A stretch of 54,677 nucleotides of DNA from a bacterium. Lineage in GTDB: Bacteria > Patescibacteriota > Minisyncoccia > UBA6257 > GWB1-50-10. Below are positions 9,729-49,787 of the stretch, one piece after another. Both the position numbers and the translations under genes were made by a program. The stretch is taken from positions 1 through 54,677 of the forward strand of contig JAKALR010000003.1 of NCBI GenBank assembly GCA_021824045.1, in the 5' to 3' direction. The number at the start of each line of letters is the position of its first letter. Position 1 is the stretch's first letter. Below the pieces are notes generated by a model. The model searched no databases, was not told the DNA's origin, and was given only the letters and a program-made list of their open reading frames with translations.

Positions 9729-10840
9729 GGGTTAAGGGAACTTAAGTGTGTTTTCTCGGAGGAAATTTTTGTGTCGGTTTTGCTCTCGCAAGGTGCGAGA
9801 GGACAATCGACACAAGGATTTTCTTCTGCGAAACGTGGAGCCCGCGGTGCCGCCGCAAGGCCTCAGCGATCGTGGCATTCGGCCAGCCCTCCATGAGATT
9901 GGTCGTGTTCGGGCATCCCGGATGATCGAGGTAGGTGAAGAGGTTCGGGATGGCGCGACGCACGATATTCCGAATGCTCCGGAGCTTCCGGTACTGATAT
10001 CCTCCCGAATCCGTCTTCTTTTTGAAATACCATGCGTATTGTTTCTCCCAGATCTTGAAGAGCAGGATCCATTTTTCTTTTGCCTCGTGCGTCTTCACGG
10101 CTTTCAACCGATACATGAGATTGAGGATATCGTGTCCGGCCTCCTCCCTTGGATTCCGTGAGAGGTACTGGATCGCGAGTTTCACCATGTGGAAATGGCA
10201 CCGCTGGAAAGCGGTGCCTGGCCAGTACCGCGCAAGAAACCGCGCCACGCCTTTCTCCCCGTCGGCCACAACGACCTCGGGCGGTTTGAACCGGATGAGA
10301 AATCCATACCACGTGCCGGAGCATTCGTCCGTCGCAAAATCCCAGAAGAGGTCGTCATGCTCGTCGAGTGATAGGAGGGCGCAGAGCTCGCCGCCATGGA
10401 TGAACTTGGCATCCAGGATGAGTATCGTGGGCCGGTATCCCGATGGCGGCAGGCGCTTCGGATCCCCGCGAAAGAACGGTGCGAACTCCTTTGTGAGCGC
10501 TCGTCGCGAGAGGCCGTACTGTTTCGCGACGGCGTCCTTGCCATCTGGACCCGTGAGCCATGCGACAAGACGGTCGCGGTCATGTCGGAGGCGCGTGTCC
10601 GTGCGGTGAACCGTGCCTGATGTCCCGCACGCCATGCATCGAAACCGCTCCGTCCCGGCCCCCGTCCTCCCGTTCCGCCGCATTTTCCTCCCGCACGTCC
10701 CGCATATTTTGTTGTGCTTTTGCATGAAGTCAGACAACCCGATGTCTGGCTTTTGGTCAAGGCAAACGAAAGAGTTCGATACCATCGAGCTTTTTCGTTT
10801 GCCGACGTCGGAGAAAAACACACTTAAGTTCCCTTAACCC
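9729..10840 (-). mobile_element. IS256-family (IS1249-like) insertion sequence, 1112 bp
   Basis: 26-bp perfect TIR GGGTTAAGGGAACTTAAGTGTGTTTT at both ends; 8-bp TSD GAAAAATC at 9721-9728 and 10841-10848. Confidence 0.93.
9742..10821 (-). CDS. IS256/Mutator-type DDE transposase (true start probably 10725)
   Basis: N-terminal CxxC...CxxC, ILDAK, VVADG, FQRCHFH, PNTTNLMEG; stop codon lies inside the TIR. Confidence 0.88.
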   Translation of the reverse strand: MFFSDVGKRKSSMVSNSFVCLDQKPDIGLSDFMQKHNKICGTCGRKMRRNGRTGAGTERFRCMACGTSGTVHRTDTRLRHDRDRLVAWLTGPDGKDAVAKQYGLSRRALTKEFAPFFRGDPKRLPPSGYRPTILILDAKFIHGGELCALLSLDEHDDLFWDFATDECSGTWYGFLIRFKPPEVVVADGEKGVARFLARYWPGTAFQRCHFHMVKLAIQYLSRNPREEAGHDILNLMYRLKAVKTHEAKEKWILLFKIWEKQYAWYFKKKTDSGGYQYRKLRSIRNIVRRAIPNLFTYLDHPGCPNTTNLMEGWPNATIAEALRRHRGLHVSQKKILVSIVLSHLARAKPTQKFPPRKHT

Positions 10841-34925: not shown

Positions 34926-36002
34926 TTAGTTGCGATCAGATTTTAATTCGTCCAATCTGGCAGTAATGTACCGAAATGTCTCCTGGTAGGCGTGGCAGAA
35001 TGGTATATTGCCGTCATATCGCCCAGAAAACCAGAAAGCTTCCGAGCGGCAACCTCCTCTGCAAATCGGCAAGAATTCACAATTACCACAATTGGCTTTT
35101 ATGTGCTCGTCACGCATTTCCCGTAGTTTTTTAACCGAGCTATTGTTGAGTATTCTAAGAAGTGGCTCATGAAAAATATTGCCGAGCACAAATTCATTCA
35201 GGGCCAATGAGCCGCAGGGCACTACTTTCCCGCTTTGGGTGATAGTTATCATCCTTTTAAGACAGACTTCTGAGAATGAGCACAGTGTCGGTCTTGAACC
35301 GAGTAGTGACCGCAGGATGTTATCGAGTGGTTGAATTGAGGAAAAATTGTTCTCGGTATACATCCATAGATTAAACACATCTCTGTAGAGATCAAATATT
35401 TCTTCATCGCTCGGCAGGAGAGGTTTGGTCGCCAGTGGAACAGATTTTAATGGCAAGAGAGAAAAAGAATCGACGCCAATTTCCTTGAATAAATCGAAGA
35501 TTTCATGACTACGTCTGACATTGAGTTTGCTTATCACGCAGAGCGTTCTCAGCGGCAATCCATGCTGTTTGATAAGTTCGCATATGCCAAGCATTCTTTC
35601 CGGTTTGACACCCCGGTGGATCTCGCAAATTTCCAATGGGGCATCGAAACTCAAGCCAAGGTGGAAATCATTCTCTTTGAGGAAATCGAGCCAGCGATCG
35701 TCAAGAAGCGTGCCATTGGTTTGTATAGTGTTCCTAAACACAATGCCGCGTTTCTCTTTCTCCTTCTTCTCTGCGTCTAAAATCTTACTAAAGAATTCCA
35801 TGCCAACACTTAAGGGTTCGCCACCGAACCAACAAAAATCTACATTATCGAAGCCGAGAGAGCAATTCTGAATAAGTGTTCCCAGGTTTTTCGCATCAAA
35901 TCTACTTTTTTTATCCTGAGATGTGGCTGCGTGGCAATAGCTGCAATGTAAGTTACATGCAGAGGTTGTCATGGCTATGACTGTTGCCGATCTTTGTGGC
36001 AT
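34926..36002 (-). CDS. Radical SAM/SPASM peptide maturase 1 (anSME-like scaffold)
   Basis: CNLHCSYC, WFGGEPL, QTNGTLLD; SPASM C.F...C...VVPC...GNI...CGNCEFLPICRGGC. Confidence 0.88.
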   Translation of the reverse strand: MPQRSATVIAMTTSACNLHCSYCHAATSQDKKSRFDAKNLGTLIQNCSLGFDNVDFCWFGGEPLSVGMEFFSKILDAEKKEKEKRGIVFRNTIQTNGTLLDDRWLDFLKENDFHLGLSFDAPLEICEIHRGVKPERMLGICELIKQHGLPLRTLCVISKLNVRRSHEIFDLFKEIGVDSFSLLPLKSVPLATKPLLPSDEEIFDLYRDVFNLWMYTENNFSSIQPLDNILRSLLGSRPTLCSFSEVCLKRMITITQSGKVVPCGSLALNEFVLGNIFHEPLLRILNNSSVKKLREMRDEHIKANCGNCEFLPICRGGCRSEAFWFSGRYDGNIPFCHAYQETFRYITARLDELKSDRN

Positions 36003-36325: not shown

Positions 36326-37363
36326 GTGAAGATTATTTTAAAACTGAGCAAAACGGCCAATTTCTTCTTTTTCGTCAGTAATCTGTCGGAATGGCACTTT
36401 TCCTGCCGAAAAACATACAACGAGGCGTGGCTTAAAAAAACCGGGCCGCTCAAAGCCGAAGAAAAAAAAGTATTGTTATTATTCAAGAAAATAATGAAGC
36501 GGCGCGGATTTTCCCGAGACAAAGATTGGCAAAGTGAATATCTCGGCAAATATTTCTATCTGTTTCCAAAAGAGAGCGTTTGGAGGGAACTTAAAAAAAC
36601 TGCAAGCGAAAAGGAAATACAGCAGTTGAAAATGATCTTTGACGTCGTGCGTCCCCGGTTTGAAAAGATATGGAAATCGTATGATCCCGGGAAGAGAGTA
36701 TCTATCATCGAAAGATATATACACAGCAGGCTCTATACAAAACTTCTGGATGATTTGGGGATGGTTTTCGGAGGAAAAAAGAGTATGCTTGAGAAACTCA
36801 ACGTCGTCATTATCGTTTCCCCTCTCGGCAAAGAGACGACAGCGGCCGGCGGAGCAAACACGGGCCCAAGCAGCATAACCCTCGAACTTCCCAGCCTGAG
36901 ACCAAAGACTTGGCAACTGGACTTTTCCGCGATGATTCTCGCCCATGAAATAGCCCACAGTCTCTTTGAAAGACGCGGTGGTGCCGAACTTATTTCAAAA
37001 TCCATCACGAGATTGAGATTACCAAAAACAATCAAAAATCTTCCCGAAGGATTCAGCACCATGCAGTTGATCAACGAAGCCCTTACGGGAAGTTTCGTGC
37101 CACTCGGTTACTTTGGTCAAAAGTATACCCAATTCAGATTAGCCCCGCTTTTGTTAAACGATTTAAACAAGGGTCTCATTGGTTATCAAAAACTGTCATG
37201 CGGAGAGAAGATAAACTATTACAATGAATTGGAATATTATCTCATCCCCAGCTTGTATTCTCTCGCAATCATCTATGGGAGGAATAAAAAATCAATCGAC
37301 CGGAATTTCGTTCTTGAGGTAGCGAAAACTATAAAAACCTCTCTGCGCTACCGTTCACCGTAG
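36326..37363 (+). CDS. HExxH metalloprotease-like protein
   Basis: ILAHEIAH plus downstream NEAL third-ligand-like motif; stop codon supplied by the 65-bp repeat. Confidence 0.6.
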   Translation: MKIILKLSKTANFFFFVSNLSEWHFSCRKTYNEAWLKKTGPLKAEEKKVLLLFKKIMKRRGFSRDKDWQSEYLGKYFYLFPKESVWRELKKTASEKEIQQLKMIFDVVRPRFEKIWKSYDPGKRVSIIERYIHSRLYTKLLDDLGMVFGGKKSMLEKLNVVIIVSPLGKETTAAGGANTGPSSITLELPSLRPKTWQLDFSAMILAHEIAHSLFERRGGAELISKSITRLRLPKTIKNLPEGFSTMQLINEALTGSFVPLGYFGQKYTQFRLAPLLLNDLNKGLIGYQKLSCGEKINYYNELEYYLIPSLYSLAIIYGRNKKSIDRNFVLEVAKTIKTSLRYRSP

Positions 37364-37396
37364 CGCCTCACTTTCTCCCATATGGGAAAAAGTGAA
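37332..37396. repeat. 65-bp double-hairpin repeat A, copy 1
   Basis: Identical to 39810-39874; contains gcgctaccgttcaccgtagcgc and tcactttctcccatatgggaaaaagtga palindromes. Confidence 0.9.
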
Positions 37397-37517: not shown

Positions 37518-38192
37518 ATGGAGTTGATTCTTATCCGACACGGCGAAACCAAAGAGGGCAAAAAGGGGATTTTATTGGGACAACTTCCGGGTACATTGAC
37601 GGCCAAGGGGCGCAGGTTTGCCGACGAAGTCGGTCGCGTGATCGCCGGATTTTCATATCGCTCCCCGCTTATTATCGCAAGTGATTTAGAACGATCAAAA
37701 GAAACCGCGCGCGCCATTGCGCGGATTACGCACGCGCCTTTAAAATGTGATAGATTGCTCCGGGAACGGAACGGAGGCATCGACGAGGGGAAAAAAGAAA
37801 GTCAAATAAATTGGAAAGAATATGAAAGGAGGCCACTCGCCTATCGCCGGCACGAAGGGGGAGAAAGTTTTGCTGATGTTAAGAAGCGAGCGAGCGCATT
37901 TCTGGAAAAAATACAAAAGGAAAAGCATTCACCGATCATTATTGTTTCCCATCAAGCGCTTATTTCCACGCTGCTCTCAGAACTTTTTGGTTGGAGCTAT
38001 CCAAAAGCCCTTAAGTTTGATCTTAAAAACAAGTTGGTCATTGTGAATACAAAAAAACGGGAGTGGACGAAATCACACTCCCGTTTAAGGATTGTTCTAG
38101 TTGATATGAGAGTATCATTGCTCGGTTATTATCGTGTGCAGCTTATGAGCAATAATATCACGAATCATGGCACATCGATCGACAGGAAATGA
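37518..38192 (+). CDS. Histidine phosphatase (phosphoglycerate mutase family)
   Basis: LIRHGET, SDLERS.ETA, LRER..G, GES, VSH; 3' end overlaps rSAM-2 by 78 nt. Confidence 0.85.
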   Translation: MELILIRHGETKEGKKGILLGQLPGTLTAKGRRFADEVGRVIAGFSYRSPLIIASDLERSKETARAIARITHAPLKCDRLLRERNGGIDEGKKESQINWKEYERRPLAYRRHEGGESFADVKKRASAFLEKIQKEKHSPIIIVSHQALISTLLSELFGWSYPKALKFDLKNKLVIVNTKKREWTKSHSRLRIVLVDMRVSLLGYYRVQLMSNNITNHGTSIDRK

Positions 38193-39368
38193 GCTAAACC
38201 AGTCACCGTTCTTGGAATAAACACATCCGCCCCGACAATGCCATTTTGCAAAACATGTCGCACAGCCGGGCATGTTCAAAACGTGGAACTGACGAACTGA
38301 TTCAACTGATTCATCGCGAATCGTGACGCCCCGATCGGTCACCATGCCGATTTCGAACGATTTGGCAAATGCGCTTTTGTCATTGAAAGAAATGGTGCAC
38401 GCAGAGATGGTACCGTCCGGTGACACCGAATAGTTGGGAATTGGCACAGAACATGGAAATGGCGACACCGAATGAATATCAGTACCCGTCAGATTGATAT
38501 CCATACCTTTTGCGCGGTAATCTTTCCACAATTCGAAGTATGCTTTTCCAAGCGCGGCATAATCAACAGTAGATTTGCCTCCAAGGGCTCGACCGAGATT
38601 TTCTTTAAGGCTGAGAAAGATATGTTTCACACCATATGTATACATCTCATCGACAATCTCCCGAAGATGTCCACTGTTCGACTCAGAAACTACCACGAGT
38701 ACGCTCATTGGAACGTTGTTCTCGAGAAGAAAACCAATGTTTCCCCACACGCGTCTTGCAATCTGCGCGTTGCCACCATATCTGAGGTTTTTGTCTCCGA
38801 AACCATCCCAGGAAACTTGCACTTCCTTCATGTCACCAATAATTCTGGTAAATTTCTTGCGACTAAAAAGGCCGTTCGTGAGAAGACGAGGTATTAACTC
38901 AGTTTTTGCTCCCAATCTACTTCTAGCATATGCGATCGTCTTTTCTATGAATGGTGTGCGTAACGTTGGTTCTCCGCCTGAATAGACTATTTCTAGAAAC
39001 TTGGCGCCGGTTTCTTCGGCGAATTTACAAAAACCGTCGATCGCGTTCTTTGCAATTACCTCCGGCATGTCTGTCACAGGACCGCTATCGGCCCGCACAC
39101 TGCAATAACGACATTCTAAATTACAACCAGTCGTTATGTTGAGACGAAGACGAATCTTTTCTTTGTCGAACACAAACCCCTTATTGCGGATAAAGTCGGG
39201 AACGTTTTTCATGTCCGATGCTTCCTTTAGCCATTCTTCATCGACATCTTCTAGTGTAATTATACCGTCATAGACGGTAAAAAATCTGGTCAGAGGAGCA
39301 TAAAAGAGCGTCTGACCATCGAGGTGGATTGCGTACACCTCTTCTCTTAGTAACCTTTCGTCCAACAT
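38115..39368 (-). CDS. Radical SAM/SPASM peptide maturase 2
   Basis: CNLECRYC, SGGEPTL, TNG, SWDG; SPASM CSVP...PDG.ISAC...CATCFAKWHCRGGC. Confidence 0.88.
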   Translation of the reverse strand: MLDERLLREEVYAIHLDGQTLFYAPLTRFFTVYDGIITLEDVDEEWLKEASDMKNVPDFIRNKGFVFDKEKIRLRLNITTGCNLECRYCSVRADSGPVTDMPEVIAKNAIDGFCKFAEETGAKFLEIVYSGGEPTLRTPFIEKTIAYARSRLGAKTELIPRLLTNGLFSRKKFTRIIGDMKEVQVSWDGFGDKNLRYGGNAQIARRVWGNIGFLLENNVPMSVLVVVSESNSGHLREIVDEMYTYGVKHIFLSLKENLGRALGGKSTVDYAALGKAYFELWKDYRAKGMDINLTGTDIHSVSPFPCSVPIPNYSVSPDGTISACTISFNDKSAFAKSFEIGMVTDRGVTIRDESVESVRQFHVLNMPGCATCFAKWHCRGGCVYSKNGDWFSSFPVDRCAMIRDIIAHKLHTIITEQ

Positions 39369-39415
39369 TGTAGTCTCCTTTCTACTCCCTGATCTTATTT
39401 TTCAGATAAAATGCA

Positions 39416-39444
39416 GGGGGTTAGAATCAGAAATTCCAACCCCC
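39416..39444. terminator. Stem-loop between precursor 2 and rSAM-2
   Basis: gggggttagaat...attccaaccccc. Confidence 0.55.
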
Positions 39445-39450
39445 AACAGG

Positions 39451-39567
39451 CTACTTCGACAGGATGCGTGTATTTGAACAGCAACCGAATGTCGAAGCGC
39501 GATTTCCGTCGGAAATCTTGCCCGAGACAACTTTTTTGGGCTTTTTTACAACAGCAATCTTTTTCAT
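39451..39567 (-). CDS. Putative RiPP precursor 2 (38 aa, not in ORF track): MKKIAVVKKPKKVVSGKISDGNRASTFGCCSNTRILSK
   Basis: GGGAGG RBS, ATG at 39567, TAG at 39453-39451; upstream TTGACA-16 nt-TATATT promoter; co-oriented just upstream of rSAM-2. Confidence 0.7.
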   Translation of the reverse strand: MKKIAVVKKPKKVVSGKISDGNRASTFGCCSNTRILSK

Positions 39568-39809: not shown

Positions 39810-40043
39810 TAAAAACCTCTCTGCGCTACCGTTCACCGTAGCGCCTCACTTTCTCCCATATGGGAAAAAGTGAAGCAACTGGTTCAAAACATACGATCGC
39901 ACAAAGTGTACCAATAGCAAGGATAGGCGAAGAAGCAGTGCTACAAAATATGCGATCGTTGAATTTGTAGCACAGGAGGGCGGCCGGAAAATAAAGAACA
40001 CCGTCAGCACATTGAGCGCTGGCGGTGTTTACATACACTCTTC
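39810..40043. repeat. Composite repeat block: repeat A copy 2, repeat B, repeat C and a terminator shared with 45715-45810
   Basis: 39876-39922 = 42850-42896; 39930-39983 = 42921-42974; 39948-40043 nearly equals 45715-45810. Confidence 0.88.
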
Positions 40044-40064: not shown

Positions 40065-41633
40065 CTACTTAAGGAGATTCATCTTCTTCGTCTGGACGAA
40101 GTTGCCGGCCTGGAGACGGTAGAAATAGACACCTGAAGCTAAGCTTGATCCGTTGAATTGGACCGAATAGCTTCCGGGGCTCTTTTCTCCGTCAACCAAC
40201 GTCGCAACTTTTTGTCCAAGAACGTTGAAAATGGTCAGGTTAACGATAGTTCTTTTTTGGACCGAGAATTGAATGGTCGTTGTCGGGTTGAAGGGATTCG
40301 GATAGTTCTGGAGCAATGTGAAAGTTGCCGGGCCGTGTGAAGGCTCATCGACGCCGGTCACGATCTTGAAGGACCATGACGCGGAGTCCGATGCTCCTGA
40401 AGCATCGCTCACGACAACGGAAACCGTTGTCGCCGACGAGATCTCCCTGAAGGTATATATCAGGGAATCGCAACCGGCAGAAACAACGTTGCCGTTCACT
40501 TTCCAGGTATAGGAAAGTGAATCGCCGTTCGGGTCCGTTGCCGCAACCGAGAAGGTCATCGGCACGTTGACTCCAACAGAGTCCATCGAGGATGGCATTT
40601 GGGATGCGATCTGAGGAGGCGAAACGACACTGAGCGTCAGGATATAAATGGAACCATTGATGTTTGCCAAGAGATGCGTGCTGTCGAGCTGCATCATGGC
40701 GCCTATCTGGTAACCTTTGAATCCGAAAACGCTCCATGTCGCACCGTTGTCGGTCGAGCGGAACAAGCCGTCGCTCACGATGTTGTTGCCATCACCCACG
40801 AACAATCCGAGATTGCTCGAAGCGAGAATGCTGGGATAACTAACGCCTACCGGAGTAGTTGGCACGGGAACTTTTTGCCAGGTTTTGCCGTCGTCGGTGG
40901 ATTTATAGACTCCTGCATCTTTCGTCGCCGCGAAGACTGTGCCATCTGATGCTTCTTCGAAATTCTCAACGCAATCCAGATCAGCACCATCTCCCGTCGG
41001 CAAACCGCTCGCTATGTTCCATGTGAAACCGTTATCGGTTGATCGGTAAACACCGTACCACTGAGGACTTATTCCCCCAACCCCCATTAGAACCGTGCCC
41101 TTGCTTGTGGTAAACAAACTCGCTGCAGTATTCCAATGGAAAGGAGAATTATCGGTAATAGAACTCCAGGTTTGGCCGTCATCAATGGATCGATAGAGAG
41201 AATCTTGTCCACCGCTGATGATTGATCTATTGGGTGCTACCGTGAAATAACGTCCAGCTTTCGTTGCGATGGTTTCCCATGCGCTTCCTCCATCTATCGA
41301 CCTTCCAAACACACTCCCCAATCCTGTCGCAAGTAGTGTTCCCGAGTCGGTAACTCCCAAAGCAAGAGTGATACCGCCGCTGAACTTAAGGTTCAGAGTC
41401 TGCCACGTTTTCCCGCTATCCGAGGAACGAATGAGATTGTTGGTGCTCGTCTGTCCCACGATATACTCACCGCTTCTCACGAAACGATAAATATAGGAAA
41501 AGTTACTGACATTCATGGTGTCAACCGGGAATACGCGGATCTGATCTGTGATCATCAGCCCCCTGGTCCCTTGTCCGAGAACAATCGCTGCAATGCTCAA
41601 AAGGAGCATTGCGATCATCATCAAACGTTTCAC
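40065..41633 (-). CDS. Secreted BNR/Asp-box beta-propeller protein with Ig/PKD-like domain and T9SS type-A (Por) C-terminal sorting domain, paralog 1
   Basis: Signal peptide; many RS.D.G.TW repeats; tail LLQNYPNPFNPTTTI...IFNVLGQ...SGVYFYRLQAG...KKM.LLK. Confidence 0.85.
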   Translation of the reverse strand: MKRLMMIAMLLLSIAAIVLGQGTRGLMITDQIRVFPVDTMNVSNFSYIYRFVRSGEYIVGQTSTNNLIRSSDSGKTWQTLNLKFSGGITLALGVTDSGTLLATGLGSVFGRSIDGGSAWETIATKAGRYFTVAPNRSIISGGQDSLYRSIDDGQTWSSITDNSPFHWNTAASLFTTSKGTVLMGVGGISPQWYGVYRSTDNGFTWNIASGLPTGDGADLDCVENFEEASDGTVFAATKDAGVYKSTDDGKTWQKVPVPTTPVGVSYPSILASSNLGLFVGDGNNIVSDGLFRSTDNGATWSVFGFKGYQIGAMMQLDSTHLLANINGSIYILTLSVVSPPQIASQMPSSMDSVGVNVPMTFSVAATDPNGDSLSYTWKVNGNVVSAGCDSLIYTFREISSATTVSVVVSDASGASDSASWSFKIVTGVDEPSHGPATFTLLQNYPNPFNPTTTIQFSVQKRTIVNLTIFNVLGQKVATLVDGEKSPGSYSVQFNGSSLASGVYFYRLQAGNFVQTKKMNLLK

Positions 41634-41782
41634 TTTCTTAACGCTCCTTTCGAGTTTTTATCGGTGAAACAACCGTTATGAACTTTATTTACAATCTAAG
41701 GGAAGATTCCTTAGTCTGGTTATATTATACCACAAACAACGAAAAAAGGCAAAAATATTGATTTCCCTTTATTAATGCGGAT

Positions 41783-42376
41783 TTATTGGAGCAATCCCCT
41801 AATGAAGATATTGTACGTCGTCGAGGCATTTAGACCACTAATTCCGAGGGTTTGGGTCCCTGTTGCACTCAAAGCGCTCTGGAGATTCGAGGGGATGGGA
41901 TAGGATTGATAGCAACTGGGATTATTGGCCGGATTCGGCGTACTCGACGGACAAATATTAAAGTTTGGATCCTGTGCACTAAAAAGGTAGATCCCCATCT
42001 GCTTATACGACTGCGGGTTGGTCCATTGCACGGTGAAACCGTTGGAAGTGACGCTCGCGGAAGGGATCGTGACATTCGTCGGCCACTGGTTGCCGCCGGT
42101 CACGTTTGCCGTCGTGACGCAGTAGCTCGAACCGCACCAGGACATTTGTCCCAGGACGTTCACCGGCGTTGTGGGGGTTTGTCCCCCGAAGTTGCCAGTC
42201 GAGGGGTTGTAGGAGATGTCGCTCAAATCGACGAGTCCGTTCCAAGAGCTATTGCTTCCGTCGCCGAATGAAAGGAATTTAGCCTCGCCGGAAAGTTTCC
42301 CCGTCGACGAATCTATCTTGGGGGCTTGGCCCGACGGCACATCGGAAGGATTGAACGACAGCCAGCCATAGCCGCC
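41783..42376 (-). pseudogene. Orphan (startless) alternative C-terminus of the 47607-49787 surface protein
   Basis: GYGWLSFN...TPTTPVNVLGQMSWCGSSYCVTTANVTGGNQWPT shared with the full-length gene, followed by a different FN3 end; no signal peptide or good start. Confidence 0.75.
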
Positions 42377-42568
42377 CTATTTCTTCAATTTTTGTATACC
42401 CAAATCTTGGCAGATTTTCTCTGCTAAGAAATTATTAATCTCCTGATGGCGCGGTACCGTCGAAACCCTTCTGGTTTCGGGATTAAAAAAGACGCTGTGT
42501 CTAGCGCCCTCGCGTACAAAAACGCAACCTTGTTTCATGATGTGGTTTATAAGATCGCGTCTCTTCAT
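42377..42568 (-). CDS. hicA: HicA-family toxin
   Basis: MKRRDLI.H....GC.F.REGARH...VPRH.EI. Confidence 0.88.
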   Translation of the reverse strand: MKRRDLINHIMKQGCVFVREGARHSVFFNPETRRVSTVPRHQEINNFLAEKICQDLGIQKLKK

Positions 42569-42780
42569 AAAGACACGAAAATCGGTTCTCTTAAGATTTT
42601 GGAGTCGGAGCTCTTAACCAAAAACTTGCCCGTTTCCAGAACAAGCACCAGAGCTTCCTTGAGGTTTTCTTTGGCTTCTTTTAGCGTGCGGCCCTGAGTA
42701 TTAACGCCGGGAATTTCTTCTATCCATGCGGAGTACCATTTTCCAGTTTTTTTATAAACGGCTGTAAATTGTCGGCTCAT
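42565..42780 (-). CDS. hicB: HicB-family antitoxin (short, no DNA-binding domain)
   Basis: EEIPGVNTQGRTLKEAKENLKEAL; ATGA overlap with hicA. Confidence 0.88.
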   Translation of the reverse strand: MSRQFTAVYKKTGKWYSAWIEEIPGVNTQGRTLKEAKENLKEALVLVLETGKFLVKSSDSKILREPIFVSL

Positions 42781-42849
42781 AATACTTCAATAGTATCATA
42801 GATTTATTTAAAAACAAGCGTATATTCGAACACTTGCCGGATTTTGGAA

Positions 42850-43113
42850 CAACTGGTTCAAAACATACGATCGCACAAAGTGTACCAATAGCAAGGGTGG
42901 GCAAAGAGGCAGCGCTACAAAAGAAGCAGTGCTACAAAATATGCGATCGTTGAATTTGTAGCACAGGAGGGCGGTTCAAAAGAAAGAAGGCTGACATATG
43001 CAGAGCATAGTCATCCTTCGAAAATCCGATTCCTAAAGAGGAATCCGAACCTTCTTTTTTGCAATCAATGAAGTATTGGCACAAAAAAAGACGATCGCAC
43101 CAAGCGTACCAAT
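42850..43113. repeat. Second copy of repeats B and C plus a degenerate B copy at 43091-43113
   Basis: caactggttcaaaacatacgatcgcacaaagtgtaccaatagcaagg; gtgctacaaaatatgcgatcgttgaatttgtagcac; acgatcgcaccaagcgtaccaat. Confidence 0.8.
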
Positions 43114-43185: not shown

Positions 43186-43905
43186 TTAAATTGATTTTGC
43201 GCAAATAAAGTATATCCTGTCGGAGACTTCTGACGCGCGGTCACCGTTCCCATCAATGACGTCAACCCCTTTAAACATTTTCTTAAGGGATCTCTCAATC
43301 TCTATGATAGGGAATGAACATTCTTTTATATTCTCGGAACTTACCACCTCCCCACCGTTTATGCCGCCCTTCATAACCTTAATGTCCCAGTTATAAATCT
43401 CCATTTCTTTTATCACACTTATCACCACTCTCCCATCGTTGAGTATTCTTATTATTGGATTCGATTGAGTTAATTTTTCTAACTTCTGCCGCGTATTAAT
43501 ATCAAAGATAAAAATACCCCCACCATTTAAATGGCGATAAGCACGAGAAAATGCATGCTCCCAATTTTCATAATTCAGTAGGTGGTTCATGGTATCGAAT
43601 ATACACAAAACGACATCATATCTCCCGGAGAGAGAAAAATTTGATATATCCTGATGAGATAAGTGAGCATTGGGGACTTTCTGTCGCGCAATTGAAAGCA
43701 TTTCCTCCGATGTGTCAATGCCAACAACAGAGTATCCGAGATCAGAGAAATATTCTAAAAACATTCCTGTTCCGCACCCTAATTCTAAGATGGTTTTTGC
43801 TTGTGGATTGTATTTCTTAATTAATTCTTCGATAAACTTTTCTCCATTTTTCCTATCCCCCATCGCGGAATCATAAAATTTAGCAAAAGCCCCGTAGTTA
43901 GTCAT
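43186..43905 (-). CDS. Class I SAM-dependent methyltransferase
   Basis: ILELGCGTG, GIDTSEEML, L..GGIFIFD. Confidence 0.88.
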   Translation of the reverse strand: MTNYGAFAKFYDSAMGDRKNGEKFIEELIKKYNPQAKTILELGCGTGMFLEYFSDLGYSVVGIDTSEEMLSIARQKVPNAHLSHQDISNFSLSGRYDVVLCIFDTMNHLLNYENWEHAFSRAYRHLNGGGIFIFDINTRQKLEKLTQSNPIIRILNDGRVVISVIKEMEIYNWDIKVMKGGINGGEVVSSENIKECSFPIIEIERSLKKMFKGVDVIDGNGDRASEVSDRIYFICAKSI

Positions 43906-43945
43906 ATCCCTATTTTACACTCTCGCAAAAGAATTGAGAAACAAA

Positions 43946-43971
43946 AGAGCTCATCGATATAAGATGAGCTC
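43946..43971. terminator. Hairpin after rSAM-3
   Basis: gagctcatc...gatgagctc with A-run flank. Confidence 0.55.
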
Positions 43972-43988
43972 AGTGCTACCAAAAATAT

Positions 43989-45368
43989 TCAGAGAGCAAA
44001 GCCATACTCCCTGAGAAGAGGGGCAACCTTTCTCTTAAAGAAAGAGACCGCCAAGCAGGCATAGTCGTCTTTCGCGTTGTAAAAATCACCGTGGAGAAAA
44101 TAAGCATTTGCCCGACATCCCGTGCCACAGAGTTCTCGCAGTTTGCATCCTCTGCAACCAGCAACATCGCCGATCTTCACCGTTTTTACCTCGCGCATTT
44201 TGTCGGAGTACCAAATATTCCAAATTGATGATTGTTTAATATTACCAATCGGCAATTCAGAACAGTAGGCACAGGAAACGACATCACCGTTCGGTTTCAC
44301 GCAACATTCGGACCTACGACCCTCATAATCACAAACGAAATCGTTATCCGTAAGTTTCTGGAAACCTTGTTCAAAGAGCTGTTCCCTGAACAAATATTCA
44401 ATTTGCAAGTGAAACGGCATGCCGTTCGCCAAATGTCGCCGCAAAAGGACTAAACAGCGCTCGGCAATAATACCCCATTCTACGTTGAATGTTGCGCGGT
44501 AATTCTTGAACTCCGGCGTCATCTTGGGAAAACCAAGTCTCCAACTGCTCACACTCATCCTTTTCACCAGATCATACATTGCATCAAGATGATCAATATT
44601 CTCCATGTTCACCACGGTGTTCACGACTACACTGATCCCTTTTGAGGTTAATAGCATAATGTTCCGCACTATGCGCTCGAGCACTTTCCTGGAATCCTTA
44701 CTGGAGAAACCCCGAAAGGAAAAGTCCACGCCGGGGATCGAATCAAGGCTGACAAAAAGCGAGAACTGACTGCGCAACTCCTGGACCGCCTGGATGAACC
44801 TGCCGTTTATCAACAGACCGTTCGAGAATATCGCAGAAATTCTCATCTTTCTCTCCTCGATGGCTGATAGCACATCGGCAAGCCGGGACATCATCAACGG
44901 CTCGCCGCCACTGATCCCGATGTTATTTACCTGCATGCCCTGCAAATCATCAAGAAGGCGAATAATCTCGTCGAAGCTCAACTCTTCGCCGCTCTTGACA
45001 TATTCAGCTTGATAGCAGTGAACGCATTTCATATCGCACTTACCGCTCGCTTCTAGATGGACTGCCTCAAGTCTTCTGTCCGGCACTTGATTTCTCCCGA
45101 GAACTCTTGGCGCGGATGCATTAGTAAATTCTACAGCTGAGATATTTTTCAGTTGATCAATGAATTGTAATACATCAACCCTCGAGGTTTTGGCGTATTG
45201 TTTGAGTATCTGTTCCACAGTGTTCGTGCCGTCAAGTGACTGGAGGAATTCAACCTGGTCGGCAGTCAACTCATAGGTAGTACCATTCCGCAAACAATAA
45301 AGAGTGCTCATTGATGTGGAATGCTTCAGTGTGAAATCGCCCGCTAACGAAACATATTGATTGGGCAT
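43989..45368 (-). CDS. Radical SAM/SPASM peptide maturase 3 with N-terminal RRE (PqqD-like) domain
   Basis: GAGGAGG RBS before MPNQYV; N-terminal ..YEL....EFLQSLDG..TVEQI winged-helix pattern; CDMKCVHC, SGGEPL; SPASM C...PNGDVVSC...GNI...CRGC.LRELCGTGCRA. Confidence 0.88.
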   Translation of the reverse strand: MPNQYVSLAGDFTLKHSTSMSTLYCLRNGTTYELTADQVEFLQSLDGTNTVEQILKQYAKTSRVDVLQFIDQLKNISAVEFTNASAPRVLGRNQVPDRRLEAVHLEASGKCDMKCVHCYQAEYVKSGEELSFDEIIRLLDDLQGMQVNNIGISGGEPLMMSRLADVLSAIEERKMRISAIFSNGLLINGRFIQAVQELRSQFSLFVSLDSIPGVDFSFRGFSSKDSRKVLERIVRNIMLLTSKGISVVVNTVVNMENIDHLDAMYDLVKRMSVSSWRLGFPKMTPEFKNYRATFNVEWGIIAERCLVLLRRHLANGMPFHLQIEYLFREQLFEQGFQKLTDNDFVCDYEGRRSECCVKPNGDVVSCAYCSELPIGNIKQSSIWNIWYSDKMREVKTVKIGDVAGCRGCKLRELCGTGCRANAYFLHGDFYNAKDDYACLAVSFFKRKVAPLLREYGFAL

Positions 45369-45420
45369 ACGAGCCTCCTCTTTTTTAAAAGTACTTAACG
45401 TACAAAAACTATAGAATAAT

Positions 45421-45450
45421 GGGTGGAATGCTTTTGAGAACACTCCACCC
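45421..45450. terminator. Stem-loop between precursor 3 and rSAM-3
   Basis: gggtgga...tccaccc. Confidence 0.5.
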
Positions 45451-45469
45451 CCGCTGGAGCCGAGTGAAA

Positions 45470-45589
45470 CTACGAACCCGGCGCACTGGCGTTCAGGGCC
45501 TGCGTCAGTCTTACCTGAAGCACCCTCTTTTTGAGTAAAGAGTTTTTCAGGACCTTCTGACCGGCCCCTTTTACCAGGGGCTTTTTCAT
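45470..45589 (-). CDS. Putative RiPP precursor 3 (39 aa, not in ORF track): MKKPLVKGAGQKVLKNSLLKKRVLQVRLTQALNASAPGS
   Basis: GAGAGG RBS, ATG at 45589, TAG at 45472-45470; upstream TATAAT; same layout (peptide, hairpin, rSAM) as cassette 2. Confidence 0.62.
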   Translation of the reverse strand: MKKPLVKGAGQKVLKNSLLKKRVLQVRLTQALNASAPGS

Positions 45590-45714
45590 AACAGCCTCTC
45601 TACAGTTTTTGTTAAGCAAGTAACTTCACAGAAAAGCCTGCAAATACCAATTACCTGCCCTATGATTATAATAACACAAAAATAAACCATTCGTAATAAA
45701 AACGCCGCCTCGCT

Positions 45715-45810
45715 ATATGCGATCGTTGAATTTGTAGCACAGGAGGGCGGCCGAAAAATAAAGAACACCGTCAGCACATTGAGCGCTGGCGGTGTTTACA
45801 TACACTCTTC
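45715..45810. repeat. Right half of repeat C plus terminator, shared with 39948-40043
   Basis: atatgcgatcgttgaatttgtagcacaggagggcggccg...aacaccgtcagcacattgagcgctggcggtgttt. Confidence 0.85.
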
Positions 45811-45826
45811 CATTGAAGAAGATCTC

Positions 45827-47473
45827 CTATTTAAGTAATTCCATCTTCTTGATCTGGGAGAAGGTTCCAGCTTGGAGACGGTAGAAATAGACGCCGCTGG
45901 AGAGATTCGATCCATTGAATTGGACCGAGTAGCTTCCGGGGTTCTTTTCTCCGTTTACCAAAACTTGAACTTCTTGCCCCAAAATATTGAAGATAGACAA
46001 GTGAACGAAAATGGGTTTTGAGACCGAGAATTCGATCGTGGTGGTCGGGTTGAAAGGATTCGGGTAGTTCTGGAGCAATGTGAAAGTCGCCGGGCCGTGA
46101 GAGGGCTCATCGACGCCGGTCACGATCTTGAAGGACCATGACGCGGAGTCTGATGCTCCCGATGCATCACTCACGACGACGGAAACCGTTGTCGCCGACG
46201 AGAGTTCCCTGAAGGTATATATCAGGGAATCGCAACCGGCAGAAACAACGTTGCCATTCACTTTCCAGGTATAGGAAAGTGAATCACCGTTGGGGCTGCT
46301 TGCCGCAACCGAGAAGGTCATCGGCACGTTGACTCCAACGGAGTCCATTGAAGATGGCATCTGGGATGCTATTTCCGGCGGGTTGGATGGGGTATACGAA
46401 ACGATGTATATACCGGATCCTGTACCCGCAAGGATTCTACCGCCACCGTAAGGATAGAGACAGTATCCATTGGTATTCGCGAGACCAACAAACTGCCACG
46501 TTTTACCGGAGTCTGCTGAATAATAGAGGCCTGCATCTCCGCTTATTCCCGCGCCAATATCATTGTGGTATATCGCCCACACTTTTCCATTGGCCGCGAG
46601 AACCGCAGAGGCATACTTCGGCATCGGAGTCGACCCATTGACCTGAATCCAGCTTTGACCGTCGTCATTGGAGCGGAAGATTCCCTCTCCATCAGTCGCG
46701 GCGTAGACAACGCCAGTCGAAGAATCACACGACAACCCCCAGATGTTGTATCCGTTGGCTGCCATGTTTCCATTCGAGTCCAGTGTGCCATCACCGATGT
46801 TGCCGATCTGACCAATGAGACCACTGTCGGCCTCCATCCAAGTGCCGCTATCACCATTGTCAGTGGAACGGTAAATTCCCGAAGTCCATCCTTGAGGATC
46901 ACCATTGCCAGTACCAGCGATAATTGTTCCTCTCGGCGTGAAAGTAATAGCACGAAAACCACCAATTGGAGGATTAAGTACATTGAGCCAGTCCGAACCG
47001 TTATCGATTGAACGATAAACAGATCCCCCAAAACCAGTTGCCACGAACATATTACTATCCTTTATGCTTATCGCTAAAGGACCGGTAGAGTTGAGGCCCT
47101 GCACAGAATTCCAAGAATTGCCGTTATCAGTGGAATTGAAAAGGTCACCTCCTGTTCCCAAGAACAATGTTCCATTTGAATTTGCCTCAATGGCATATGC
47201 GGATGCAAATGGCATATTGGCGCCCTTGAGACCATTCATTAAATGAACCCAGGTGCTTCCTCCATCAGAAGAGCGATAGAGGTAATCAGTTCCGGTACCA
47301 GCGAAAATATTTCCACTTCTATCAACAAAGAGGGAGGCGACGGCAGCGTTGATTTTTCCACCATCGAGGATATTTTTCATTTGGAATTTTGTGGTAACGT
47401 TCGTCTGACTCCAAACCGCTATTGGCCAGATGCTCGCGAGGAGCACCAAAGCAAAAAGAATGATTCGCTTCAC
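45827..47473 (-). CDS. Secreted BNR beta-propeller protein with Ig/PKD-like domain and T9SS type-A C-terminal domain, paralog 2
   Basis: Same RBS/start context (aaaggagcgttaagaaaGTG) as paralog 1; highly similar last ~180 aa; divergent propeller. Confidence 0.85.
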   Translation of the reverse strand: MKRIILFALVLLASIWPIAVWSQTNVTTKFQMKNILDGGKINAAVASLFVDRSGNIFAGTGTDYLYRSSDGGSTWVHLMNGLKGANMPFASAYAIEANSNGTLFLGTGGDLFNSTDNGNSWNSVQGLNSTGPLAISIKDSNMFVATGFGGSVYRSIDNGSDWLNVLNPPIGGFRAITFTPRGTIIAGTGNGDPQGWTSGIYRSTDNGDSGTWMEADSGLIGQIGNIGDGTLDSNGNMAANGYNIWGLSCDSSTGVVYAATDGEGIFRSNDDGQSWIQVNGSTPMPKYASAVLAANGKVWAIYHNDIGAGISGDAGLYYSADSGKTWQFVGLANTNGYCLYPYGGGRILAGTGSGIYIVSYTPSNPPEIASQMPSSMDSVGVNVPMTFSVAASSPNGDSLSYTWKVNGNVVSAGCDSLIYTFRELSSATTVSVVVSDASGASDSASWSFKIVTGVDEPSHGPATFTLLQNYPNPFNPTTTIEFSVSKPIFVHLSIFNILGQEVQVLVNGEKNPGSYSVQFNGSNLSSGVYFYRLQAGTFSQIKKMELLK

Positions 47474-47606
47474 TTTCTTAACGCTCCTTTCTGAGCTTTC
47501 TGTTAAGCAATCAGTTATTGAGAAATGACAAGCAAGGATTTATTTAACTTCATCCTTGGCTGTTAAGTATTATACCACAAATCGCTGAAAAATGGAAGGG
47601 GTAGAT

Positions 47607-49787
47607 TTACTTCAAAAATGCTCGTATTTTCACGTAGTATGTTGTATTGGGACTCAAATTATTTATTGTTTGTGAATATGTAGTATTTGATGAAGTTGCA
47701 TCCAATTTCGGTATTATAAACCATCCCCTCACTGGATTACTCGACGTGGCATACAACACCTGCGCACCACCGGCGTAGCTCTGTGGGTTGTACCATTGCA
47801 CGGTGAAACTATTTGCCGAAACGGCGGTCGTTGTTACGCCGGTTGGCCACTGGTTGCCGCCAGTCACGTTTGCCGTCGTGACGCAGTAGCTCGATCCGCA
47901 CCAAGACATTTGTCCCAGGACGTTCACCGGCGTTGTGGGAGTCTTGCTCCCGAAGTTGCCGGTCGAGGGGTTGTAGGAGATGCCGCTCAAATCAACCCAG
48001 CCGTCCCAGGAACTGTTGCCGCCGTTGAAAGCGGGGAACCGGGCGTAGCCGGAGAGTTGATTTTTCGCCGGATTCAACTTCGGAGCGCAATTCGGAGCTC
48101 CCGTTGGGCAGCCGTTGAAGTCACTGGTGTTGAACGACAGCCAGCCGTAGCCATTCCCGCTCCACGCGTACCCGGAAAGGTTATTGTTCGAATCTATGTA
48201 CACGCCATACTGATTCGAGTCGGTCGGCGAGGTATTCGAACTGAATTTCACCCAGCCGATGCCCTGGTAGGTTGCTCCGCCCGTTTTCGCGTTGAAATAT
48301 TGTCCAAGACCCCAGACAGCCGAGATCCCATAGCCATCAACTTCGTAATAGTACGGCATGATGTTGCTCAGATTACTGTCGGTGAAGGTATGCGTGCTGC
48401 CGGGATTCAAATTAAAGGAATCTATTTGAGTTTTCCCGCTGCATCCGAAAGCGGAACTGTATCCGGAGCACCGATAGATGGTTCCCTTCCATACATCATT
48501 CGGGTTGACCACGGAGATCGTAACGCTGTTCGCCGAAGCGCTCCCGGTGACCGAGAAGGGCACCGACGGAGTTCCATAGAAACTCGACGATCCCATCTTT
48601 TGGAAATAGCCGTTGGTTATCGTCCCATTGACATTGGCCCAGGCATACCCCGAAAGCGATTCTTTCAGATTCAAGTTGATGGAACCCGATGTCACGGGAC
48701 CGGTGATATTCCCGCTCCCGTCCTTGAAGGCAACGCTGTAAACATGAGTTGCGCTGAGCGGCGCCGTAGTGTCGTAGTACGACGTCGCCGTAGAACGCCC
48801 GAGAGACACGGTGTATATCTGTGTTCCGTCCCGGTATACAACGTAGGTCCCCGACGAAGCATTTTTGACCGTCGGCCAGGAAAGATACACCGTCCCCTGA
48901 TTCGCGGTCGTCGAGGCATAGACCACATTAGCGGTCATGGAGGATCCGCTGAAACTCGGTAGAGGCGGCACCACTTTCGTGAAATTCGCCGTGAGAGCGC
49001 CCGATGCGGTACTCCCCGTATCATTGATAATCTTGCACGTTGCGTTGGTCACCGGGTAGCAAGAATCCAGAGCGATGCCCGTACCGCTCCAGCTGGAAAA
49101 CGTGTAGCCGGATGCGGGAGTAGCAGTGAGAGTGATATTTTGCGGAGGCGTAAATTTCAAATTGGTGCTGCACTGCGTCGATCCCTCGCCGCAGTCTATG
49201 GCAGTTACCCCGGCGCTACTGTTTACCGTCGTGATCATGCCGGCATTATTATTGGCGCTTCCATTAGCGGCTAACTGAACGGTCAAATTATTCGATGGCG
49301 GCGGCGACGGCGGCTGATAAGCTTGGGTGAAATCAGCCGATACGGCCGCGTTATAGACGTCATCCACGATCCAGGTCAACGAGCATGCGCTCGTATTCGG
49401 CGTTCCGCTGCACGCGCCGCCCCAGCTTGAAAATTGGTATCCACTTGCGGGCGTTGCCGTCAAAGTAACCGTGATATTGCCGCTGCCGACTCCCCCGCTG
49501 CATCTCGTGCCGGTCGTGCCGCAGTTTATGATTACCGTTCCGCTCTGGGTTTTACCAACCACCGAACCAGCGACCGTCCCGCTGCCGCCGTTCAATGTTA
49601 TCGTAACCGACAACTGCCGCGTCGGTTGCGGAGGCGGCGGAGGCGTCCCGCCTCCCCCCCCCGTTCCTCCGCCATCCGGGGGCAATGGCGCTACCGCGGA
49701 CACGCCATGCGACATCATAACGGACCCTACGCCGATGGCCGCGATCGCGATGAAAAAGATGAAAAATTTTTTATTCGACAATTTCAT
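47607..49787 (-). CDS. Secreted surface protein with divergent InlB-B-like repeats, FN3 domains and CPR-type LSGYAW..GW.SF repeats
   Basis: Signal peptide, Pro/Gly linkers, two TLTATPASGY.FSSW repeats, C-terminal NLSPNTTYYVKIRA. Confidence 0.75.
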   Translation of the reverse strand: MKLSNKKFFIFFIAIAAIGVGSVMMSHGVSAVAPLPPDGGGTGGGGGTPPPPPQPTRQLSVTITLNGGSGTVAGSVVGKTQSGTVIINCGTTGTRCSGGVGSGNITVTLTATPASGYQFSSWGGACSGTPNTSACSLTWIVDDVYNAAVSADFTQAYQPPSPPPSNNLTVQLAANGSANNNAGMITTVNSSAGVTAIDCGEGSTQCSTNLKFTPPQNITLTATPASGYTFSSWSGTGIALDSCYPVTNATCKIINDTGSTASGALTANFTKVVPPLPSFSGSSMTANVVYASTTANQGTVYLSWPTVKNASSGTYVVYRDGTQIYTVSLGRSTATSYYDTTAPLSATHVYSVAFKDGSGNITGPVTSGSINLNLKESLSGYAWANVNGTITNGYFQKMGSSSFYGTPSVPFSVTGSASANSVTISVVNPNDVWKGTIYRCSGYSSAFGCSGKTQIDSFNLNPGSTHTFTDSNLSNIMPYYYEVDGYGISAVWGLGQYFNAKTGGATYQGIGWVKFSSNTSPTDSNQYGVYIDSNNNLSGYAWSGNGYGWLSFNTSDFNGCPTGAPNCAPKLNPAKNQLSGYARFPAFNGGNSSWDGWVDLSGISYNPSTGNFGSKTPTTPVNVLGQMSWCGSSYCVTTANVTGGNQWPTGVTTTAVSANSFTVQWYNPQSYAGGAQVLYATSSNPVRGWFIIPKLDATSSNTTYSQTINNLSPNTTYYVKIRAFLK

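Follow-up and report, generated by a model that had tools for sequence, protein, structure and literature searches.

The window analysed here, a stretch of 54,677 nucleotides from contig JAKALR010000003.1 (GenBank assembly GCA_021824045.1; Patescibacteriota, Minisyncoccia, UBA6257, GWB1-50-10), carries on its minus strand a small cassette consisting of a gene for a 39-residue peptide, a hairpin, a gene for a radical S-adenosylmethionine (rSAM) enzyme with a SPASM domain, a second hairpin and a gene for a methyltransferase (Table 1). The balance of evidence tips towards a minimal maturation cassette of the kind that produces peptides made by the ribosome and modified after translation (RiPPs), for which an oxidative mechanism is proposed. 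It is very probable that the 39-residue peptide is the substrate of the rSAM enzyme. All of these elements, including the co-oriented methyltransferase beyond a hairpin, had been claimed in a first-pass annotation of the sequence and were found on the minus strand. The order peptide, hairpin, rSAM, methyltransferase is repeated in dozens of independent contigs, and the arrangement is far beyond chance. The architecture is of a known kind; the family and its Cys-free invariant core are new.

A conserved precursor-like peptide without core cysteine

The window peptide is basic in its N-terminal part, which holds the leader motif K-x-L-x-x-S-x-L-[KR]-[KR], continues with the core RLTQALNA and the tail SAPGS, and lacks any C, W, Y, F or H. 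Its gene is single-copy in the host genome and its product matches no Pfam or NCBIfam model. Peptides of this kind (class 1) or of a second kind (class 2) were encoded upstream of the rSAM gene in 31 of 34 loci, a set that includes L012 and requires the rSAM N-terminus plus about 140 nt or more of upstream DNA. The three others are L015 and L019, which form one lineage, and L053 (33% identity), which has another peptide. Loci in which the rSAM gene extends past the contig end or is 5'-truncated were not counted (L013, L016-18, L020, L024, L030, L044, L046, L047, L049, L050, L056, L058, L059, L061, L064, L066 and L067), and L062, L063, L065 and L068-70 were set aside as distant paralogues (24 to 28% identity). 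Most upstream peptide open reading frames (ORFs) in related loci are preceded by the Shine-Dalgarno sequence GAAAGGAGG. On contig L012, an ORF with the same ending lies behind a GAAAGGAGG ribosome-binding site and is followed by a hairpin, the rSAM homologue and the methyltransferase.

When 1.84 billion representatives were searched with a profile built from 20 peptides, 28 hits were obtained. Four of these (the giant repeat proteins P0092, P0107 and P0117, and P0115) match through unrelated repeats and were rejected as members. When loci and profile search were pooled, there were 32 distinct class-1 and five class-2 peptides. In the class-1 core R1, L2, T3, Q4 and N7 are invariant (32/32), while A5 (30/32), L6 and A8 (31/32 each) vary rarely; P11 (28/32) and G12 (30/32) are conserved in the tail. 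The class-1 leader has L at -8 (30/32), S at -10 (23/32) and K/R at -15 and -6, and its position -13 is aliphatic. Leader motif and core are a fixed eight residues apart, with an ungapped alignment between them.

Comparison of the eight RLTQALNA codons among 15 loci (105 pairs) revealed 567 synonymous and 28 non-synonymous differences, with every synonymous Arg, Leu and Thr codon occurring in the core (6 Arg, 5 Leu, 4 Thr). Because of this synonymous excess and the use of all Arg, Leu and Thr codons, selection acts on the peptide and not on an RNA element, and the purifying selection on the amino acids is strong. A chance ORF was rejected on the same counts and on the per-position conservation in the 32 peptides, and from these comparisons the 39-residue ORF is judged to be translated and selected as a peptide. 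The view taken in the first-pass annotation, that this is a precursor-like peptide unless the ORF should lack conservation, is thus borne out by the related loci and the codon counts. Its statement that the peptide has no aromatic residue is true of the window peptide and of the invariant core and does not extend to the wider family, since 19 of the 32 class-1 peptides have Y, F or H at position -1 (V or L in 13, the window peptide included). Cysteine is found in none of the 32 class-1 or five class-2 cores, and in the leader of four of the 32 class-1 peptides, at non-conserved positions.

The stop codon of the peptide gene is directly followed by a stable stem-loop in 20/20 loci (z -1.7 to -6.3 against mononucleotide shuffles). 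This begins 7 to 50 nt past the stop codon and is conserved in position, not in sequence. Members of one sub-clade have, between hairpin and rSAM, a short frame that begins with MDIL (L012:1853-2008, L034:814 onward and L060:2932 onward); it is a separate ORF of 51 to 59 residues in L012 and L034, and the in-frame N-terminus of the rSAM in L060.

The radical SAM/SPASM enzyme

Judged from the sequence, translation of the rSAM most plausibly starts at the ATG at 45368, which lies 7 nt past a GAGGAGG ribosome-binding site and is the start of the called protein P0001, common to the family alignment. The GTG at 45443 given by the ORF finder is probably not used. The protein matches the Pfam families Radical_SAM (E = 2e-16), SPASM (1.1e-08) and Fer4_12. 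No NCBIfam model was matched at its cutoff, with NirJ2 at 105 bits (cutoff 500), ScmE at 101 (400), MftC at 81 (265) and PqqE at 71 (381). A word-based search returned 91 family clusters with E values from 0 to 2e-72, followed by a gap up to the limit of 1e-20, and a metagenome scan with an alignment of 31 sequences gave 58 loci. Only unnamed rSAM/SPASM clusters were among the matches in the ESM Atlas.

Cysteines C111, C115 and C118 are invariant in 31/31 rSAM sequences, as are C346, C366, C405, C408, C414, C418 and C438 of the SPASM domain; C356 is present in 30/31. Only these 11 motif cysteines reach at least 30/31, the next-best conserved being C355 (26/31) and C369 (24/31). According to the motif in the accessible text of PMC10878394 (section 9), the eight SPASM cysteines fit two fully ligated auxiliary clusters.

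An AlphaFold2 (AF2) model of the enzyme (predicted local distance difference test, pLDDT, 93.3; predicted template modelling score, pTM, 0.91) has an N-terminal domain with strands at residues 5-8, 12-17, 21-25 and 31-33 and helices at 36-43, 51-55 and 60-75. The best Foldseek matches, over the whole length, were CteB, SuiB and TigE, with E values of 8e-19 to 1e-16 for maturases containing a RiPP recognition element (RRE). CteB, ChlB, anSME, SkfB, SuiB and TigE are the closest structures; Z scores from VIA-align were 27.2 for CteB, ChlB and anSME, 25.9 for SuiB, 23.4 for TigE, 22.3 for PqqE and 18.6 for EpeE. Residues 1..439 of the SuiB chain (5v1t_A), RRE included, align with model residues 5..441, and in a profile search of PDB sequences the CteB alignment began at query residue 24 and that of TigE at residue 12. 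The RRE-like N-terminal domain already suspected in the first-pass annotation is therefore supported by the AF2 secondary structure and the SuiB alignment, and the full SPASM domain by Pfam and the eight conserved cysteines.

The methyltransferase

The third protein matches Methyltransf_25 (E = 2.7e-20) and Methyltransf_11/23 in Pfam; its best NCBIfam match is the daptide methyltransferase NF041820 (64 bits, below the cutoff of 175). A homologue starts at most 500 nt after the rSAM gene in 42 of the 43 loci with at least 700 nt of downstream DNA (loci not de-duplicated). Its identity falls with that of the rSAM: where the rSAM is 68%, 46% and 39% identical, the methyltransferase is 54%, about 30% and about 24% identical, respectively. 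By sequence, the best solved relatives are TylM1 (72 bits), DesVI and CalS10, with BamL/BpumL weak. Foldseek searches with the AF2 model (pLDDT 91.8) found, at TM scores of about 0.8 to 0.88, 1y8c and 3d2l (both uncharacterised), TylM1, CalS10, DesVI, KedS8, CcbJ, YunM, CypM, CgnL and MtfA. N-methyltransferases, the RiPP enzymes CypM and CgnL among them, make up most of the structural neighbours that have been characterised. N-methylation is thus, from sequence relatives and the predicted structure, the most likely activity.

A second peptide class and co-diversification

Class-2 peptides, which end in QLKV[AS]IHPV followed by D, GIDD or GR, are found upstream of rSAMs that are about 40% identical (L048, L051/52 and L054/55). 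The enzymes paired with them form their own rSAM clade (support 100/98), as do the class-1 enzymes (99/97), and sub-variants of the class-1 peptide (for example, NAG..GT and PGE) track rSAM sub-clades. When the two classes are aligned, they have in common only L2, a small residue at position 5, L/I at 6 and N/H at 7. Class 2 has a conserved His and, at the positions of class-1 T3-Q4, K-V, with no conserved Thr or Ser.

Distant rSAMs (25% identical) in L069 and L070 are preceded by short basic peptides ending in TNTTA (L069:121-219 and L070:1962-2039), which suggests further Cys-free precursor families of the same plan. L016-L018 and L020, near-identical to the L015/L019 contigs, have an rSAM cut at residue 46 that lies beside the Cys-rich peptide gene of another cassette.

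Proposed reaction and alternative explanations

As the cores are without Cys and without an obligatory aromatic residue, thioether and cyclophane formation are excluded as the conserved reaction. The first-pass annotation had called both impossible, which holds for the common reaction of the family (no core Cys, and no conserved aromatic in the 32 class-1 peptides). It had also considered C-terminal chemistry, epimerisation and aliphatic or ether crosslinking. C-terminal chemistry is unlikely because the peptide end varies among homologues: the last residue is T in 21, E in 5, S in 4 and K in 2 class-1 peptides, and D or R in class 2. With three full clusters and no spare conserved Cys, an oxidative two-electron reaction fits better than a Cys-dependent epimerase.

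In the mechanism proposed, the basic leader would dock on the RRE through its conserved motif, eight residues from the core, and the core would enter the rSAM barrel. The 5'-deoxyadenosyl radical would then take a hydrogen from an sp3 carbon in L-x-x-[A/S/T]-[L/I]-[N/H], the segment common to both classes, preferably in the triad [A/S/T]-[L/I]-[N/H] or, in class 1, from Thr or Gln. The second electron could pass to two auxiliary clusters that are fully ligated by Cys, and the net two-electron oxidation (-2 Da) would give either a desaturation or a C-O, C-N or C-C link within the molecule, and neither a thioether nor a cyclophane. The methyltransferase might then methylate a nitrogen, either an amine or the side chain of Asn or His. 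Within this reading of the cassette, a two-electron oxidative modification comes close to an even chance; some reaction of another type is a minority prospect and epimerisation a rather unlikely outcome.

Several observations weigh against the cassette being such an oxidative maturation system. Only the three cassette genes recur in 12 non-redundant neighbourhoods, which have no conserved protease or transporter/exporter. Full Cys ligation of both auxiliary clusters is deduced only from conservation. The Pfam PqqD match of the first 101 rSAM residues is weak (E = 0.032, below cutoff), so the N-terminal domain is termed RRE-like on structural grounds. The two peptide classes share few residues and their reactions may therefore differ. 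In the L015/L019 lineage the rSAM (66% identical) and methyltransferase are intact and the peptide gene is missing from the DNA examined, with the hairpin that normally follows it still visible; as L019 lies beside L057 inside class 1, its peptide gene would have been lost or moved secondarily. L024 is the sole locus of the 43 without a downstream methyltransferase. Finally, Foldseek neighbours of the methyltransferase also include three indole C-methyltransferases (PsmD, SeMT and SgMT), and PsmD and SeMT score equally well.

The pair PoyD/PoyE of polytheonamide biosynthesis, in which epimerisation is followed by Asn N-methylation, provides a parallel for another explanation, namely that the rSAM is a peptide epimerase like EpeE/YydG or PoyD that inverts the conserved Leu/Ile or a neighbour, the methyltransferase then N-methylating a side chain. 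The invariant Asn is indeed the type of residue N-methylated in polytheonamide, and EpeE is among the structural matches. The positions common to both peptide classes are aliphatic or small ([A/S/T]-[L/I]), like the targets of EpeE, which epimerises Val36 and Ile44 (accessible part of PMC8326336). Nevertheless, this explanation is unlikely. In the same source, known epimerases have one or two clusters plus a strictly conserved catalytic Cys that is not a ligand (EpeE C223, PoyD C372) and are leader-independent, whereas this family has 3+8 conserved cysteines, which fit three clusters, and a conserved leader together with an RRE-like domain. EpeE also scores far below CteB, anSME and SuiB (Z 18.6 versus 26-27; 33 bits in the PDB-sequence profile search). 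Epimerisation stays a serious candidate, weakened by the lack of any further strictly conserved Cys, in the 31 sequences, that might serve as H-atom donor. An ether of the rotapeptide type is improbable; here the oxygen of the invariant Thr would be joined to the alpha-carbon of the Gln next to it, or of some other residue, in the manner of TqqB with the TQQ peptides. T3 and Q4 are invariant in class 1, a full SPASM domain is compatible with an oxidative cross-link, and rSAM formation of an ether from Thr-O to Gln-C-alpha is an established reaction (Clark et al. 2019, cited by the accessible part of PMC8326336). However, class 2 has no Thr at position 3, so the ether reaction would have to differ between clades, and as the whole core is near-invariant, invariance does not single out T-Q. 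Of the crosslinks considered earlier, a Thr ether would thus be confined to class 1. The cyclopropyl type is disfavoured, since the GYW motif, which in the accessible part of PMC10878394 defines the cyclopropylglycine synthases and supplies a Tyr ligand to auxiliary cluster I, occurs in 0/31 family sequences.

Two further explanations place the peptide outside RiPP maturation as proposed here. The idea that it is the precursor of a small peptide-derived molecule or cofactor, like PQQ or mycofactocin, might account for a core as conserved as that of cofactor precursors, for the appearance of MftC and PqqE among the better NCBIfam matches and for the absence of an exporter. It is very improbable, given that the MftC and PqqE scores are far under their cutoffs, that the peptides have no conserved Tyr or Glu-Tyr pair and that no excision peptidase or oxidase is conserved in the 12 neighbourhoods; moreover, the cassette is rare and patchy, which does not fit a core cofactor. 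Even less credence is given to a cis-acting regulatory leader or arrest peptide controlling read-through of the hairpin, with the true substrate encoded elsewhere. The terminator-like hairpin at 20/20 loci, a peptide end of P-G-x and the L015/L019 enzymes without an ORF would all suit such a role. Against this, the core changes with the enzyme clade, as expected of an enzyme and its substrate and not of a peptide acting on a conserved ribosome, the leader motif is conserved eight residues upstream of the core, and the distance from stop codon to hairpin varies widely. The enzyme is also predicted to carry a peptide-recognition domain.

Overall, oxidative maturation of the 39-residue peptide is the preferred explanation. 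With its core nearly invariant and no exporter or protease dedicated to it, the product looks less like a bacteriocin, which would evolve fast, than like a conserved signal, an effector or an intracellular peptide. A bolder proposal, which must be regarded as tentative and on balance doubtful, is that the family is a RiPP class of its own in ultra-small episymbionts (of the candidate phyla radiation, CPR, and perhaps DPANN), with an undescribed reaction on an aliphatic/amide core, such as a link of the C-N or C-O type in which the invariant Asn/His or Thr takes part, and an N-methylated product acting as a symbiont-host signal or effector.

Distribution, novelty and significance

Among the 60 closest genomes there was no match better than E = 1.8e-21 (25% identity), and 400 sampled genomes of the phylum gave one distant match. 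The latter (G136/L072, 238 bits) has a methyltransferase upstream and no such peptide in its ORF list, and was rejected as a member. The only close match among species-representative genomes was the Candidatus Nealsonbacteria contig L012 (46% identity). Names of the sources include Nomura-, Kaiser-, Kuenen-, Andersen- and Nealsonbacteria, Parcubacteria and Patescibacteria; two metagenome-assembled genomes carry the labels Nanoarchaeota and Aenigmarchaeota (DPANN), which are unverified. Neither NCBIfam 20.0 nor Pfam has a model for the peptide or one specific to the enzyme, and the source names of the family are all generic. No description of the family was found in the freely readable literature.

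New peptide chemistry comes mainly from radical SAM enzymes. To our knowledge, almost all of the characterised peptide rSAMs use Cys or an aromatic residue as a partner; as the core here excludes both, there is a good chance of a new reaction, and the reaction of the family is probably new. The system is one of the few resembling specialised metabolism that are apparently specific to the CPR, organisms whose biology is almost unknown. Genomes of about 0.6 Mb, as in the CPR, leave little room for dispensable genes, and a core so extremely conserved, alongside an enzyme that diverges to 40% identity, suggests that the product has a conserved molecular target. The cassette is ready to express, comprising peptides of about 35 residues, one enzyme and one methyltransferase, and the family is cleanly defined.

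Genomic setting

The host genome is CPR-sized (611,871 bases, estimated 97.7% complete), and the window is its contig 29. The three cassette genes are bracketed by copies of the same intergenic repeat families (Table 1). The upstream repeat includes a GC-rich hairpin and a T-run on the minus strand and is probably the terminator of the BNR gene ending at 45827. An integron-like cassette was considered because repeats bracket the cassettes and dropped because the Pfam matches of the window include no integrase, the nearest being a weak match to Mutator transposase (9742-10821). The remainder of the window consists of housekeeping genes and a type IV pilus cluster.

Table 1 Features of the cassette and its flanks (positions within the window)
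Feature	Position	Strand	Details
Precursor-like peptide gene	45470..45589	-	39 aa; ATG start at 45589, stop at 45470
Terminator-like or attenuator hairpin, peptide/rSAM gap	45421..45450	-	12-bp stem, T-rich tail
RRE-like (PqqD-like winged-helix) N-terminal domain of rSAM, about residues 1-95	45084..45368	-	AF2 model, structure alignment
Radical SAM/SPASM enzyme, 459 aa	43989..45368	-	Pfam, conserved Cys, structure matches
CX3CX2C motif of rSAM (C111/C115/C118)	45015-45038	-	Conserved Cys
Eight SPASM cysteines of rSAM (C346 to C438)	44055-44333	-	Conserved Cys
Terminator-like hairpin, rSAM/methyltransferase gap	43947..43971	-	9-bp stem and T-run; consensus match only
Promoter-like site just downstream of second hairpin	43940-43912	-	Consensus match only
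Class I SAM-dependent methyltransferase, 239 aa, TylM1/DesVI/CypM-like fold	43186..43905	-	Pfam, NCBIfam, Foldseek
Intergenic repeat upstream of cassette (families D3 + D4)	45697..45810	.	96-nt copy, 99% identical to 39948-40043
Intergenic repeat downstream of cassette (families D5 + D3)	42845..42974	.	Repeat-family comparison within window

The cassette sits in a segmental duplication of about 5.76 kb (40065-42340 versus 45827-49787; spacing of repeat pairs 5762-5770, 85 to 92% identity) that also holds another rSAM cassette. The duplication carries paralogous BNR/Sortilin-type proteins and an fn3 protein that is truncated in one copy, and after each copy come the 96-nt repeat (99% identical) and an rSAM cassette, in that order. 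In this 0.6-Mb, CPR-sized genome the genes at 40065-41633 and 45827-47473 (minus strand) encode proteins with a C-terminal sorting domain of type IX secretion (Por_Secre_tail, E = 8e-12 and 4e-11), and another Por_Secre_tail protein adjoins a related cassette (L045:5968-6279). We know of no type IX secretion system in such organisms, and the sorting domain is thus unexpected.

In the second window cassette (38115-39567, minus strand) the rSAM has 417 residues, with PapB as its best NCBIfam match (80 bits, below cutoff), and is preceded by a gene for a basic peptide of 38 residues with a Cys-Cys pair. Together with a histidine phosphatase gene, this cassette lies between identical 65-nt direct repeats with a palindrome (37332-37396 and 39810-39874). 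A HicA/HicB-like toxin-antitoxin pair is found between the two cassettes (42377-42780, minus strand). A third rSAM/SPASM enzyme (34926-36002, minus strand), without N-terminal extension, is encoded beside an fn3-like protein of 485 residues; its best matches are anaerobic sulfatase maturase (204 bits, cutoff 349) and DynA (180 bits, cutoff 450).

The 12 neighbourhoods contained NUDIX genes in four cases, other rSAM genes in two and toxin-antitoxin genes in two (L045 and L057); the latter include HicA, ParE and AbiEii genes near the related cassettes. In L012 (the same as L035) the cassette lies between two more rSAM genes, one of which is followed by a Cys-rich ORF of 66 residues (L012:2-700, 4478-5524 and 5529-5729). 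Several peptide-modifying cassettes thus cluster there, as in the window.

Comparison with known systems

Sactipeptides and ranthipeptides need a Cys donor, and none of the cores, in 32 class-1 and five class-2 peptides, has one. Cyclophane maturases (StrB/SuiB, triceptides and the PqqE type) are not matched by class 1, which has no conserved aromatic residue; class 2 has its conserved His. MftC and PqqE are set apart by scores below their cutoffs and by peptides with neither a C-terminal Val-Tyr nor a Glu...Tyr. Daptide precursors have an invariant C-terminal Thr, which is present in only 21 of the 32 class-1 peptides, and the methyltransferase does not reach the cutoff of the daptide model.

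SCIFF and its maturase ScfB represent a short, highly conserved peptide modified by one rSAM/SPASM enzyme, with no dedicated protease or exporter and a role that is unknown. The plan is the same here, but SCIFF is Cys-rich, thioether-linked, found in Clostridia and without a methyltransferase. The NCBIfam model of the SCIFF maturase (TIGR03974) was only among the matches of the two other rSAMs of the window.

EpeE/YydG and PoyD likewise need no Cys or aromatic residue in the substrate and act on aliphatic residues, but they have fewer clusters, an essential non-cluster Cys and leader-independence (accessible part of PMC8326336), and their similarity to the family is much lower. The T-Q of the TqqB Thr-Gln ether is invariant in class 1 and absent from class 2. 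The cyclopropylglycine synthases TvgB/TigE, described in the accessible part of PMC10878394, are rSAM/SPASM enzymes with an RRE that act on Val and Ile of a peptide free of Cys and aromatic residues. The conserved Leu/Ile would be a comparable aliphatic target, but the family has a single core without repeats and no GYW motif in its 31 sequences.

The cassette methyltransferase most resembles the amine N,N-dimethyltransferases TylM1, DesVI and CalS10, together with CypM, CgnL and NF041820. For the rSAM, identity to CteB (5wgg/5why), SuiB (5v1t), SkfB (6efn) and TigE (8vpo) is only 14 to 19%, and the core contains none of the features that their substrates use, which are Cys for CteB and SkfB, Lys-Trp for SuiB and repeated TIGSVS for TigE. 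The family nevertheless has the same plan as these enzymes, with a putative N-terminal RRE, a radical SAM barrel and a SPASM domain (Z 23-27) and with the precursor gene directly upstream.

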